Below are positions 40,871 to 44,762 of a stretch of DNA of 64,000 bases, piece by piece. Both the position numbers and the translations under genes were made by a program. How positions within the stretch are numbered: the first letter of the stretch is position 1; each line of letters begins with the position of its first letter. Origin of the DNA: an uncultured Chloroflexota bacterium (lineage in GTDB: Bacteria; Chloroflexota; Anaerolineae; Caldilineales; Caldilineaceae); the NCBI GenBank assembly GCA_903858085.1, contig CAIOHJ010000103.1, forward strand, positions 21,598 to 85,597. Reading direction: 5' to 3'. The notes below the pieces were generated by a model that was given only the letters and a program-made list of their open reading frames with translations, ran no database searches and was not told where the DNA came from.

Positions 40871-42091
40871 TCAGACAGCAACCTGTTCGATGCTCTGTTC
40901 GCGTGCTGGGAAACCACAAAACTGTTCGTAGTCGATCAGCTGGGTCACGGTGGCGTGCTCCCCGCAGAGCGGGCAGTCCGGGCTGCGCTGCACCTTGAGC
41001 GTGCGGAAACTCATGTCGAGCGTGTCGACCATCAGCAGCTGGCCCACCAACGATTCACCCACACCCAGGATCAGCTTGATCGCTTCGATCGCCTGGATAG
41101 AGCCGACGATCCCGGGCAGCACGCCGAGCACTCCGGCTTCGGCGCAGCTGGGCACTTCGCCGGGCGCAGGTGGTTCCGGGTAGAGACAGCGGTAGCAGGG
41201 GCCGCCGCGGAGCCCGTGCTCCGGGGAATCAGGCAGATAGACAGTTGCCTGGCCCTCGAACATAAAGATGCTGCCGTCGACCAGCGGTTTGCCCAGCATA
41301 TGGCAGGCATCATTGACCAGGTAGCGGGTGGGGAAGTTGTCTGAGCCATTGAGCACAATGTCGTACTGGCGGAGGATCTCCAAGGCATTGTCGCTGGTCA
41401 AAGGGGCGTTGTGTGGCACGACCTTGACATCTGGGTTGATGTCACGGATGCGGTCGGCGGCCGACTCCACCTTGGGACGGCCGACATCCTTGTTGCCGTG
41501 CAGCAGTTGCCGCTGCAGATTGGAGACATCGACGACATCGAAATCGACGATGCCGAGCGTGCCGACACCGGCAGCTGCCAGGTACATGGCAGCCGGGCTG
41601 CCCAGCCCGCCCGCCCCGATCAGCAACACTTTGGCTTCCAGCAGCTTGATCTGGCCAGCCTCGCCCACCTCTTTGAGCAGGGTGTGGCGTGAATAGCGCA
41701 GCCGTTGATCGTCGCTCAGGATGCGTGGCACCGTGAAGCGAAAACCGACGTTTTTCCAGCCGTTGAAACCGCCGATCATCGAGGTCACTCGGGTGTAGCC
41801 CATCTCTTTGAGGTTGCGGGCAGCCAGCAACGAACGCACACCGCCCGCGCAGTAGACCACGACGGGCGCATTCCGGTCGGGCTGGTGCTGTTCGATCTGC
41901 AACTCCAGGTAACCGCGTGGGATGAAGATCGCATCGGGCAGGTGTCCCTGCACAAACTCGTCGCGCTCGCGAATGTCGACGATCGTCACCGGCTGGCGGG
42001 CATCGATCTGTTGTTTGACCTGGTGTACGGTGAGCTCGGGCACCTCACGGCGGGCCCGGTCGAGCAGCTGGTCTCGGTTGAGCGCTGTCAT
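40871..42091 (-). CDS. moeB: MoeB/MoeZ-like adenylyltransferase with N-terminal rhodanese domain
   Basis: Rhodanese loop CAGGVRS; RYSRH, GAGGLG, SNLQRQ, SDNFPTRY, CYRC, SCAEAG, CPLC. Confidence 0.92.
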   Translation of the reverse strand: MTALNRDQLLDRARREVPELTVHQVKQQIDARQPVTIVDIRERDEFVQGHLPDAIFIPRGYLELQIEQHQPDRNAPVVVYCAGGVRSLLAARNLKEMGYTRVTSMIGGFNGWKNVGFRFTVPRILSDDQRLRYSRHTLLKEVGEAGQIKLLEAKVLLIGAGGLGSPAAMYLAAAGVGTLGIVDFDVVDVSNLQRQLLHGNKDVGRPKVESAADRIRDINPDVKVVPHNAPLTSDNALEILRQYDIVLNGSDNFPTRYLVNDACHMLGKPLVDGSIFMFEGQATVYLPDSPEHGLRGGPCYRCLYPEPPAPGEVPSCAEAGVLGVLPGIVGSIQAIEAIKLILGVGESLVGQLLMVDTLDMSFRTLKVQRSPDCPLCGEHATVTQLIDYEQFCGFPAREQSIEQVAV

Positions 42092-42094
42092 CGG

Positions 42095-42373
42095 TCACCC
42101 CTCTCCGCCAGCCATTGCCGGCACAATCGAGACCTTGTCCCCTTCGCGCACGGGTGTATGCAGCCCCTGCAACCCCCGAATTTCATCGTCGTTGACAAAG
42201 ACATTGATGAATCGTTTGACGTTGCCGTCGTCGTCGAGCAGCCGGTCGGCTACGCCCGGGTACTGGGCATCGACCGCCTGGATCAGCGTGCCGATGTCGG
42301 TGCCGGTCGCCTCCACCTTGGCCAGACCGCCGGTCAGCCGGCGCAGGGGGGTAGGTACATAGACTGTCGCCAT
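42095..42373 (-). CDS. ThiS/MoaD-family sulfur carrier (CysO-like), C-terminus GG-EG
   Basis: VPTPLR, INVFVNDDEIR, GDKVSIVPAMAGG-EG; GAAAGAGGA SD. Confidence 0.92.
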   Translation of the reverse strand: MATVYVPTPLRRLTGGLAKVEATGTDIGTLIQAVDAQYPGVADRLLDDDGNVKRFINVFVNDDEIRGLQGLHTPVREGDKVSIVPAMAGGEG

Positions 42374-42397
42374 AAATTGAGTCCTCTTTCTTTGCTC

Positions 42398-42429
42398 AAA
42401 AAAAAACGAGCCATCCGGGGATGTGCTCG
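42398..42429 (-). terminator. Intrinsic terminator in the leader of the sulfur-carrier operon
   Basis: Minus strand CGAGCACATC-CCCG-GATGGCTCG (9 bp, one bulge) followed by T9, just upstream of the SD. Confidence 0.82.
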
Positions 42430-42576
42430 GCAAAATTTGTTTTTGGGTGATGAACAGCGTGCAGAAACGTGTCTAGCAGAAAACTGTCACAATCGATTCT
42501 ATTCAGATTTGCCTGGGCACATCTTCTCCTGTTGGCGGTCAGCGGGAAACGGCCAGCGCCTTGCTGGCTGTCCCCG

Positions 42577-42630
42577 CTATCGACACAAGCACGTCAGTTG
42601 TGATGCCTTCTGGCAAAGCTGTTTCTGCAT
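42577..42630 (-). CDS. Putative Cys-containing leader peptide MQKQLCQKASQLTCLCR
   Basis: 17 codons with 3 Cys, between the promoter and the leader terminator; no strong SD. Confidence 0.4.
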   Translation of the reverse strand: MQKQLCQKASQLTCLCR

Positions 42631-42685
42631 TTTCAGTCAATTTCTGAACTTCAGCGATTTGAAAATAATTCAAATGGCAGCTTCC

Positions 42686-42713
42686 AGTATAGCCAGAGCG
42701 CTGCTGCTGTCAA
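42686..42713 (-). promoter_or_regulatory. Sigma70-type promoter of the sulfur-carrier operon
   Basis: TTGACA-N16-TATACT on the minus strand. Confidence 0.75.
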
Positions 42714-42854
42714 GCTGAAGGATTGGCTGTACGGTATAATTCCTTCCACTTGACGGCAGCTTCCCCCCCCGACAATTGGCCAGGTTTCCCCAGATGGCGT
42801 ACAATCGATCGCAGATTGTTTGTATCCGCTCTTCACCTGGCCAGGAAATGCTCC

Positions 42855-44762
42855 ATGACACCTGCCTATTCGATTCAATCGTTGTTGGCCGCCCGCCAGT
42901 TTGTTGCACCGCAGCGGGTAGGAGATCGTCTTTATTTTATCAGCGACCTCTCTGGCCGCCTGAGCCTGTACACCATGCGGGTCGGCGGCAGCGTCCCCGA
43001 GCCCTTGGTCCCGCCCGATCGGGCGCTGCCCAACCCCCATCTGCTGGAGGGGGGAGTGGTTTTTTGTGTGCTGCCTGCGCTCGGCCAGATCTTGTTGATG
43101 CTCGACTGCGACGGCGACGAGAACTACCAGCCCGTCTTTGTCCCGATCGACGGGGGTCTGCCCGTGCCGATCTTTGGGGATCGCTTCAGCGGCCAGCAAG
43201 TTCTTTGTTCGGCCTGCGACCCCCAGCGGGGGCTGGCCTTGTTCAATGTAGACCCACGGCGCTCCCCGTGGTTGGAGTCCTTTCGTGCCGATCTGGCGAC
43301 ACGGGAGTTGACCAGCCTGGGAAGCAGCCTCTATGGCAACTTTCCTGTGGGCCACGACGCCCCAATGAACATGGTCCTGTTGGCGGACCAGTACACAGCC
43401 GGCGATGTCGTCTGGTACCTCTGGCGCAAGGGAGGGGACGAACGCCAGCTGCTGTATGGGACGCCGCTGGAAAAGCGGGTACCTGGAGAGCCGACCGTGC
43501 CCAACGGGCTCGGCAATGCCCAGGTTGTCGACGACAGAGGGGTACTGTTGATCTCGGCACTTTTTTCTGACACCTATGGGCTGGGCTACTTGTCTCTGCA
43601 AGACCCCACAGAGCTGCTGCCGGTCAGAGTCCAGGGCACACGCCACAGTGGAACAGGCGAACTGGTGGGCCTGCACGCAGCGCTTGACCAGCGCTACCGG
43701 CTGGTCTACAACATCGACGGCGCCTCCTGGGTTTACATTGGCCACTTTGACCGCGACCGTCTGCATTTCGAGGTCGACCAGCTGCTGGTCGGCGAAGAGG
43801 AGTTCAGCGACGGGGTCCTCGAATCGTTCAGCACAGACCCTCTCTCCCGTTCCCATGTGCTCTCTTTTTCGACGGCGACCTCGCCTTCGCAGCTTTACGT
43901 GGTGGAGCCCGCTGGCAGCGTGCAGCGTCAGACCCACGAACGGTTGTTGGGGATTCCCCGTCGGCTGTTGGCGGCGGGAGAAGAGGCCCCCTACCTTTCG
44001 CACGACGGGCTGCGCGTCTCCGCCCGCCTCTATCTGCCGTCGGCTGAGCTGGGCTTTGTGGGGCCGCGCCCGGTGATCTTTTACATCCACGGTGGCCCAC
44101 AGAGCCAGGAACGCCCCGATTTCACCTGGTTTTCGATGCCGCTCATCCAATTTTTCACGCTCAACGGCTTTGCCGTGTGGGTGCCGAATGTGCGGGGCAG
44201 CGCCGGCTATGGGCTGGACTACATGAAGCGGGTGGACCGGGACTGGGGAGGGCAGGATCGGCTCGACCATGTCGCTGCCTTCGAGCGGCTGCGCCAGGAC
44301 AGCCGGCTGGACATGGCGCGCGCCGGCGTGATGGGGCGCTCCTACGGGGGGTACATGACCCTGATGCTGGCTGGGCGTCACCCCGAGCTCTGGAAGGCGG
44401 CCTGCGACATGTTTGGGCCTTCCAACCTCCTGACCTTTCTGGAGCGCATCCCAGAAGCCTGGAAGACCTACTTTACCCTGGCGATCGGCCACCCGCACCA
44501 CGACCACGGCCTGTTGGTCGAGCGATCCCCCAGCACCTATCTGCACCAGATCGCCTGTCCGCTGCTCGTTCTGCAGGGGGCCAACGACCCACGGGTGGTC
44601 GAACAGGAGTCGAACGACGTCGTTGAGCGGCTGCGCAGCCAGGGCAAACGGGTCGACTACGTGGTCTACCCCGACGAAGGGCACGATGTCCTCAAATATC
44701 CCAACAAAGTGGACTGCTACAGCCGGATCACCGAATTTTTCCGGCTGCATCTGCAGCCCTGA
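42855..44762 (+). CDS. S9-family (prolyl oligopeptidase/acylaminoacyl) peptidase
   Basis: IHGGPQ, PNVRGSAGYG, GRSYGG, QGANDPRV, DEGH. Confidence 0.92.
   Translation: MTPAYSIQSLLAARQFVAPQRVGDRLYFISDLSGRLSLYTMRVGGSVPEPLVPPDRALPNPHLLEGGVVFCVLPALGQILLMLDCDGDENYQPVFVPIDGGLPVPIFGDRFSGQQVLCSACDPQRGLALFNVDPRRSPWLESFRADLATRELTSLGSSLYGNFPVGHDAPMNMVLLADQYTAGDVVWYLWRKGGDERQLLYGTPLEKRVPGEPTVPNGLGNAQVVDDRGVLLISALFSDTYGLGYLSLQDPTELLPVRVQGTRHSGTGELVGLHAALDQRYRLVYNIDGASWVYIGHFDRDRLHFEVDQLLVGEEEFSDGVLESFSTDPLSRSHVLSFSTATSPSQLYVVEPAGSVQRQTHERLLGIPRRLLAAGEEAPYLSHDGLRVSARLYLPSAELGFVGPRPVIFYIHGGPQSQERPDFTWFSMPLIQFFTLNGFAVWVPNVRGSAGYGLDYMKRVDRDWGGQDRLDHVAAFERLRQDSRLDMARAGVMGRSYGGYMTLMLAGRHPELWKAACDMFGPSNLLTFLERIPEAWKTYFTLAIGHPHHDHGLLVERSPSTYLHQIACPLLVLQGANDPRVVEQESNDVVERLRSQGKRVDYVVYPDEGHDVLKYPNKVDCYSRITEFFRLHLQP

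Follow-up and report, generated by a model that had tools for sequence, protein, structure and literature searches.

The leader of a thiS-moeZ-cysM operon in an uncultured bacterium of the Caldilineaceae is probably a ribosome-mediated transcription attenuator, in which translation of a short leader peptide reports the supply of cysteinyl-tRNA. The operon lies on the minus strand of a 64,000-nucleotide stretch of contig CAIOHJ010000103.1, which was analysed whole and is called the window here. The leader lies within the 481-nucleotide gap between an S9 peptidase gene and the first gene of the operon, which encodes a sulfur carrier. Comparison across relatives reveals an upstream open reading frame (uORF) conserved in its frame and in its cysteine codons, two pairings that both covary, an intrinsic terminator, and an exclusive association with genes of cysteine synthesis. 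The element most likely represents an undescribed family of ribosome-mediated cysteine attenuators. A first-pass annotation had arrived at cysteine leader-peptide attenuation from the window alone, and the conservation of frame and cysteine codons, the covariation of both pairings and the operon association support that idea. The features of the leader and its two flanking genes are as follows, with the leader in the order of transcription and positions counted in the window.

42713-42708 and 42691-42686, minus strand: predicted sigma-70-type promoter, TTGACA, 16-nucleotide spacer, TATACT, matching the consensus at 11 of 12 positions
42636-42501, minus strand: covariance-model match, the conserved family core, comprising the uORF, hairpin H and region 2
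42630-42577, minus strand: uORF of 17 codons for the leader peptide MQKQLCQKASQLTCLCR*
42621-42612, minus strand: CAGCUUUGCC, codons 4-7 including the Cys6 codon; 5' strand of helix P1 and anti-antiterminator strand, partner at 42513-42504
42615-42613, 42591-42589 and 42585-42583, minus strand: uORF cysteine codons Cys6 (TGC), Cys14 (TGC) and Cys16 (TGT)
42579-42577, minus strand: uORF stop codon, TAG
42577-42542, minus strand: hairpin H (GCGGGGAC-A-GCCAGC loop GCUGGC-C-GUU-U-CCCGC), paired in 94% of alignment cells
42523-42504, minus strand: region 2, GAUGUGC-cca-GGCAAA-UCUG, which serves both the antiterminator, as its 5' strand (42523-42508), and P1, as its 3' strand (42513-42504)
42496-42460, minus strand: variable spacer, complementary to the uORF in the window's clade only
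42434-42420, minus strand: 3' strand of the antiterminator, UUUGCC-ga-GCACAUC, overlapping the 5' arm of the terminator
42429-42398, minus strand: intrinsic terminator, stem-loop at 42429-42407 and U9 tract at 42406-42398
42388-42382, minus strand: Shine-Dalgarno (SD) sequence of thiS, AAGAGGA
42373-42095, minus strand: ThiS/CysO-like sulfur-carrier gene, first in the operon, ATG at 42373
42855, plus strand: likely ATG of the divergent S9 peptidase gene, the upstream neighbour

All of the listed features are present at these coordinates, and the promoter, the 17-codon uORF with its three cysteine codons, the terminator with its T9 tract before the SD and the two antiterminator strands are as the first-pass annotation had described them. 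By the promoter prediction, the -10 box lies 55 nucleotides 5' of the uORF AUG at 42630. A TTGACA...TATACT pair occurs at a comparable position in relatives also, and the same scan gives a mean of 0.6 promoter-like sites in the shuffled 2-kb region. The terminator stem (CGAGC-A-CAUC CCCG GAUG-GCUCG) folds at -10.8 kcal/mol by RNAfold; a simple pattern scanner overlooked it because of the bulged A. The first base of hairpin H is also the last base of the uORF stop codon. As a whole, the leader folds more stably than shuffled versions of itself (z = -2.6).

Distribution and the genes behind the element

By BLAST, the leader core (about 42620-42540) is found at 76-90% identity in all 15 other genomes of the genus, with divergent flanks, and thiS-moeZ lies downstream of it in all 15. 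A covariance model built from 20 sequences (R1) matches 121 of the 151 genomes of the family, representing 23 of its 26 genera, at roughly one copy per genome. A further model (R2), for which 46 sequences were used, extends the distribution to six further families of the class, for a total of more than 150 Anaerolineae genomes, and gives no match among about 380 sampled genomes from other classes of Chloroflexota. When moeZ loci from many phyla were examined, the motif was present in 7 of 80, and those 7 come from metagenome-assembled genomes of Caldilineales, Anaerolineae or Chloroflexi; the 73 from other phyla gave no model match. Within the window's own genome, the search for a second copy gave just a 23-nucleotide chance match inside a coding region. 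No model match was obtained in genus g21 of this family, which comprises about 20-30 genomes, many of them complete. Weak matches to the reverse strand were dismissed as artefacts, hairpin H being near-palindromic.

Every locus of the same family with enough flanking sequence has thiS-moeZ downstream. In the other families, the element is followed either by thiS-moeZ or by cysK, and the latter is often followed in turn by a cysE-like gene. The assignment of cysK is by TIGR01139, at 477 bits against a cutoff of 351. The element has been seen solely upstream of thiS(cysO)-moeZ(-cysM) or cysK(-cysE), and in genomes G431 and G339 it occurs twice, once before each type of operon. Since two biochemically different routes to cysteine carry the element, and nothing else does, it is very likely a cysteine sensor.

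The upstream reading frame

Frame statistics were collected at 77 loci. An ATG lies in frame 9-17 codons 5' of the C-x-C motif, with no stop between, in 68 of them, as compared to 0 and 3 in the other two frames. A stop falls within 8 codons after the first cysteine in 70 loci in that frame and in 2 and 6 loci in the others, and the stop position is occupied by TAG in 70. Those loci that have no in-frame ATG mostly have a GTG or TTG start, and a few of the remainder are artefacts of how the motif was anchored. Save for a few read-through cases, the leader peptide is 13-21 codons in length and mostly 15-18.

Both cysteine codons of the C-x-C motif are retained in all 77 loci. The Cys14 codon is TGC in 74 and TGT in 3, and the Cys16 codon is TGT throughout. 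The codons between and after them are variable; codon 15 specifies Leu, Ser, Ile or Ala, and codon 17 Arg, Leu, Cys, Gln, Pro, Ser or Met. Since codon 15 changes along with its partner strand and the identity of the cysteines never changes, selection appears to act on the codons and not on pairing alone. The N-terminal part of the peptide is not conserved in sequence. It frequently has extra cysteine codons, as in MTFQVCCCRYRTYCSCR and MAQKVCTSIHCLCCLCR, and cysteine amounts to 6.9% of the upstream codons in frame versus about 2% out of frame; the cysteine content of six neighbouring proteins is 1.2%.

The end of the frame shows two kinds of variation. At L077, L089 and L097, the UAG is replaced and the frame runs three codons further to a UGA (..CSCLKRA*). 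At L093, L095, L096, L178 and L180, which belong to one family, and at L079, the frame runs through hairpin H for about 35-47 codons and includes more cysteine codons, for example in ..TCSCCKRACAGHGRAPRYCC... These frame-through-H loci sit upstream of cysK, and as a possible variant of the mechanism the hairpin may be melted there by the ribosome itself.

Two pairings of region 2 and a terminator

The first pairing, P1, joins uORF codons 4-7 with the 3' part of region 2. Most of the genus has it as GAGUUUUGC:GCAAAACUC; the window has CAGCUUUGCC:GGCAAAUCUG, and L017 has CGGAUUUUGC:GCAAAAUCCG. Over the 46 sequences aligned, all nine of its pairs are changed on both sides, and 86% of the cells are paired. 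In most relatives there is a further helix, P2, between the Cys14-x codons and the bases directly 5' of CGAUGAG; it covaries as GCUUG:CAAGC, GCUCG:CGAGC, GCUCC:GGAGC and GCAUCUGUC:GACAGAUGC. Taken together with hairpin H, these helices have 91% of cells paired, versus 31-50% when the partners are slid against each other, and none of 500 shuffles reaches the observed value. The regulatory codons thus lie within the sequestering strand, Cys6 in P1 and Cys14-x(-Cys16) in P2 of the relatives, and both helices covary.

Hairpin H starts at the G of the UAG in all relatives. Its base, GCGGG/CCCGC, is almost invariant, and its apex ranges from 5 nucleotides up to an insertion of about 40 nucleotides in one family. 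It could be an RNA polymerase pause site, a spacer, a timer, or a barrier that prolongs the stall. RNAalifold, run on the first alignment of 20 sequences, offered an alternative small hairpin (CUUGCU:AGCGGG) joining the region of the Cys14 codon to the base of H. It was neither adopted nor excluded, because its bases never vary and covariation is not possible there.

In its second pairing, region 2 engages the terminator. The CGAUGAG core, together with the bases on its 5' side, pairs with the 5' arm (CUCAUCG) and loop of the terminator; at L005, CAAGCGAUGAGC pairs with GUUCAUCGCUUG over 12 bp. These duplexes are worth -16 to -29 kcal/mol, which is on par with the terminators themselves, and in 55 of 67 loci the duplex is better than with shuffled region 2 at p<=0.05. 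The window's own duplex (GATGTGC-cca-GGCAAA:TTTGCC-ga-GCACATC) reaches -20.0 kcal/mol versus -9.8 for shuffles. Comparing the window's GAUG-U-GC:GC-A-CAUC to its relatives' GAUG-A-GC:G-UU-CAUC gives a compensated change. For the family as a whole, the antiterminator was evaluated in an ungapped alignment (A5) in which each strand was anchored independently of the other. In that alignment 74.9% of cells are paired, versus 31-44% when slid, 11 of 14 pairs are changed on both sides, and the covariation score is reached by none of 500 shuffles; L054, L063 and L085, whose terminator arm was mis-anchored automatically, were kept in the count as unpaired noise. Since one short strand (CAAGC, CGAGC, GUGCG or GAUGC) covaries with two different partners, the element carries the signature of a switch.

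The output of that switch is probably the terminator. A GC-rich hairpin followed by a U-tract of 4-9 U is found in 49 of 52 loci of the family, its 5' arm is the conserved partner of region 2, and the SD of thiS is 3' of the U-tract, unpaired in predicted folds and outside the switch. These are arguments against control by translation or by Rho-dependent termination instead of an intrinsic terminator. Such control would have precedent in the leader ORFs of Actinobacteria, given that the small open reading frames (sORFs) with cysteine codons in mycobacteria free a downstream ribosome-binding site (bioRxiv 10.1101/834739) and that actinobacterial cysteine leaders are without terminators (PMC1262725). 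For the element described here, we consider it very improbable.

The first-pass annotation had wired the window differently. It had the uORF (42628-42598) pair with the spacer (42496-42460) so as to enclose region 2, and it had a second small uORF, MCPGKSE*, on the region 2 strand, which could serve as a second cysteine sensor. Both features exist. The uORF:spacer helix, made of GCAGAAAC (42628-42621) with GTTTCTGC (42468-42461) and TCACAA (42603-42598) with TTGTGA (42492-42487), is in the minimum free energy fold of the window, at -90.7 kcal/mol versus -82.7 with P1 forced. The mini-uORF is at 42522-42499 and is preceded, 4 nucleotides upstream, by a good SD, AGGAG, at 42530-42526. What failed was conservation. 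The spacer is not conserved beyond the window's clade. Even at L004, which is 89% identical, the changes of GCAGAAAC to GCTGAAAC, GTTTCTGC to ACTTCTGC and TTGTGA to CTGTGA disrupt pairs and are not compensated, and elsewhere the helix is absent; it was set aside as a conserved anti-antiterminator because it is specific to a lineage. The cysteine codon of the mini-uORF is CGC (Arg) in L003 and L004, and its ATG is part of the invariant GAUG pairing element of region 2, which stands without an SD in most other genera. It was likewise set aside as a conserved coding element, and MCPGKSE is probably incidental. P1 can also form first, since transcription reaches region 2 ahead of the spacer. We therefore regard the uORF:spacer wiring as unlikely in the window, and the conserved role of anti-antiterminator falls to direct uORF:region 2 pairing, by P1 (42621-42612:42513-42504) and, in relatives, P2.

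The pairing of the Cys14-x codons in P2 also bears on whether the peptide itself could be the sensor. The C-x-C motif is always 1-4 codons before the stop, and the predominant UAG abuts a stable hairpin, as might be expected of a TnaC- or SecM-like arrest peptide ending in C-x-C-x-stop that stalls the ribosome at its stop codon upon free cysteine or a redox state. A stall at the stop would mask the P2 strand and lead to read-through at high cysteine, which is the wrong sign for biosynthetic genes. Moreover, the residues around both cysteines vary freely, the N-terminal part is not conserved, and several loci have the stop shifted by three codons or lost with the C-x-C retained. An arrest peptide has, in our estimate, hardly any chance of being the explanation.

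A proposed ribosome-read switch and its relation to known systems

The mechanism that we propose is as follows. The transcript would begin about 50 nucleotides 5' of the 17-codon uORF with its cysteine codons 6, 14 and 16. When cysteine is sufficient, the ribosome would complete the uORF and depart at the UAG. The freed uORF RNA, or that of a uORF that had not been translated, would pair with region 2, by P1 (CAGCUUUGCC:GGCAAAUCUG) in the window and by P1 plus P2 in most relatives. With region 2 sequestered, the terminator at 42429-42398 would form, and transcription would halt 24 nucleotides before thiS. When Cys-tRNA is scarce, the ribosome would stall with a cysteine codon in the A site and cover the uORF strand, and a second ribosome would possibly queue at the uORF start during the stall. 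Region 2, being free, would capture the terminator 5' arm as it emerges (GAUGUGC..GGCAAA with UUUGCC..GCACAUC), the terminator would be prevented, and the thiS-moeZ-cysM operon would be transcribed. On this reading, the uORF would be translated, ribosomes would stall on it under cysteine limitation, folding would follow a kinetic order, and hairpin H would act as a pause or timing element.

Folding predictions are partly in accord with this. In free full-length leaders, the uORF pairs with region 2 in five tested relatives and with the spacer in the window, and the terminator forms in all six. To represent a ribosome, a footprint reaching from -12 to +15 relative to the P site was imposed, with either Cys14 or Cys16 in the A site. 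Placed on the full-length leader, the footprint switches the window and L084 from terminator to antiterminator. Because the decision falls during transcription, transcripts ending before the terminator 3' arm were also folded, as a rough proxy for co-transcriptional folding. Among 73 such shortened transcripts, region 2 pairs with the arm (at least 6 bp) in 16 when the uORF is free, in 50 with the A site at Cys14, in 34 with it at Cys16, and in 71 when the entire uORF is covered. The modelling suggests that a ribosome stalled at codon 14-16 may leave just room for a second at the start codon, where it would cover P1; uORF lengths vary little, as such a queue would require. The fixed geometry, with a uORF of mostly 15-18 codons, the C-x-C-x-UAG abutting a conserved hairpin, and the long spacer, may represent a variant sensing mode, either by hairpin-assisted stalling or by a queue of two ribosomes over the whole uORF.

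Several observations weigh against the proposal. With the footprint at Cys14 or Cys16, four of the six full-length leaders retain P1 and the terminator at equilibrium, so either kinetic competition during transcription or a second queued ribosome would be needed. The SD complementarity 5' of the uORF is modest in the family (mean -3.9 versus -2.6 kcal/mol for background, p = 4e-7) and absent in the window (+0.2), and initiation in the window would therefore need an A-rich, SD-independent route. The string UGC-N3-UGU-N3-UAG-CGGG is near-invariant even at synonymous sites, Cys16 never being TGC, with the consequence that constraints at the RNA level and at the codon level are entangled. Other families include a few loci with another codon in place of the UAG, where the frame extends three codons or through H. 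Finally, the alignment for P1, P2 and H was fitted to the covariance model, and alignments derived in that way favour the modelled structure.

Some of these same observations would suit a different kind of element, in which the conserved core (H and its invariant flanks) is a riboswitch or a protein site for a sulfur metabolite or regulator, with the uORF untranslated and the cysteine codons kept as RNA. Ligand binding would then stabilise the uORF:region 2 helices. The invariance at synonymous sites, the weak or absent SD, the almost invariant base of H and the frequent retention of the terminator in equilibrium folds with a single footprint all point that way. They have to be set against a start, frame and nearby stop conserved in one frame only (68 of 77 loci versus 0 and 3), and against codons 15 and 17, which vary in amino acid with the partner strand compensating as the two cysteine codons stay constant. 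The extra cysteine codons are enriched in frame, and the apex of H varies in sequence and length, one family having the large insertion. Junctions or loops with the conserved unpaired bases typical of aptamers are missing, as is any Rfam match. Specifically, cmscan against Rfam 15 over 41800-43300, both strands, at E<=10 returned only two chance matches, of 14.5 and 12.7 bits, both far below their gathering scores, and T-box, SAM and other riboswitches were not matched. We therefore think a riboswitch or protein site quite improbable, and continue with attenuation by a leader peptide. Wherever computation can address them, the structural hallmarks of the leader-peptide attenuator class are all found in the element.

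Leader-peptide attenuation is a textbook mechanism. To our knowledge, nearly all documented cases come from Proteobacteria, Actinobacteria and a few Firmicutes, and we know of cysteine attenuators only as translational, leaderless sORFs in mycobacteria. According to an earlier survey, which reported new leader peptides from Firmicutes, they had until then been known only from Proteobacteria and Actinobacteria. The first-pass annotation had been aware of no case in Chloroflexota, and full-text searches of the literature likewise did not find the element described in that phylum. It is likely that we are dealing with the founding case of a conserved family of Cys-tRNA-sensing attenuators spread through part of one class. 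It would be the first leader-peptide attenuator described for Chloroflexota and, among cysteine-specific ones, the first to use an intrinsic-terminator switch.

Like trpL, hisL, leuL, thrL and pheL, the element has a short leader ORF in which codons for the end-product amino acid are over-represented. It shares with the trpL/hisL type the location of regulatory codons within the strand that sequesters the antiterminator, the exclusive 1:2, 2:3 and 3:4 pairings, an intrinsic terminator directly before the first structural gene, and, by prediction, default termination with the leader unoccupied. It differs in that cysteine would be sensed, and by only 2-3 cysteine codons in a fixed C-x-C-x-stop instead of a run. 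It also differs in having the conserved hairpin H (about 36 nucleotides) between regions 1 and 2 and a variable spacer of 70-120 nucleotides between regions 2 and 3; because of the long spacer, a ribosome at the stop codon could not mask region 2. It belongs to the class Anaerolineae of the phylum Chloroflexota, and there is no sequence similarity to the trpL/hisL type.

The mycobacterial 'Cys ribulon' (bioRxiv 10.1101/834739) resembles the proposed mechanism in that a stall at the cysteine codons of an upstream sORF raises operons of cysteine metabolism, and in that several operons of one genome can each carry their own copy. The polycysteine sORFs described there are leaderless, have consecutive cysteine codons and act by unmasking a downstream ribosome-binding site. 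In the Anaerolineae, by contrast, the AUG is about 50 nucleotides into the transcript by the promoter prediction, the motif is C-x-C, and the output would be an intrinsic terminator with a U-tract. The predicted cys/cbs leaders of Actinobacteria (Seliverstov et al. 2005, PMC1262725) are also short ORFs with cysteine codons near the stop, located before genes of cysteine synthesis. Conserved hairpins and terminators are lacking there, and the mode suggested was Rho-dependent (PMC1262725), whereas the antiterminator, terminator and anti-antiterminator of the Anaerolineae element are all conserved and covarying. The Cys T-box and the S-box (SAM-I) of Firmicutes likewise control cysteine and sulfur genes by antiterminator and terminator, and the T-box also reads tRNA charging. 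The element differs from these in having no Rfam model match and in that sensing would be by a translating ribosome, not by direct binding of tRNA or ligand.

If the proposal is true, the element defines a small ribosome-read regulon composed of cysK-cysE and cysO/thiS-moeZ-cysM. It would extend the mechanism to a poorly studied phylum with a structurally well-defined, covarying cysteine attenuator, and it would be a new RNA family and a candidate addition to Rfam. In bacteria that are mostly uncultured, it would serve as a regulatory marker tying the CysO-type sulfur-carrier pathway and CysK/CysE to one cysteine signal. Its natural variants would be useful for asking what geometry, and what minimum of regulatory codons, attenuation requires.

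The regulated operon has the order thiS-moeZ-cysM-DUF4395-thioredoxin on the minus strand and ends at about 38995. Its products are a ThiS/MoaD-like carrier, a rhodanese-ThiF adenylyltransferase of the MoeB/MoeZ type, a CysM-like cysteine synthase, a DUF4395 protein and a thioredoxin-like protein, a layout that we take to be that of the CysO-dependent cysteine pathway of Mycobacterium. In the E1-like enzyme (40871-42091, minus strand), the rhodanese domain is N-terminal (residues 21-114), before the ThiF domain. The carrier of the window (42095-42373, minus strand) ends in ..AMAGGEG, two residues past the Gly-Gly, and the carriers of other families end in ..AMAGGR. Since residues are present beyond the Gly-Gly, trimming of the C-terminus before activation is implied.

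Repeats occur near some copies of the element. L006 and L012 have tandem repeats with units of about 60 nucleotides (GAAGAGAGCCGCGAAGACGCAAAGG..GGCACGAAGGAAGAGTTGGTCAAGAAAGT) between terminator and thiS. At L077, runs of GGAAGCTA/GAAGCT and CCAGCAT hexamers to heptamers lie downstream of the motif. The repeats at these three loci lengthen the 5' untranslated region beyond 250 nucleotides. Elsewhere in the window's own genome (L002, G000:C19, about 1540-1900), at least six units of about 50-57 nucleotides are arrayed head to tail, each with a small hairpin CCCCATCGGGG (..CGCCCCATCGGGGYGGATGAATTGAGCGARGGCACGCACG..), directly 3' of a gene for a multi-pass membrane protein.

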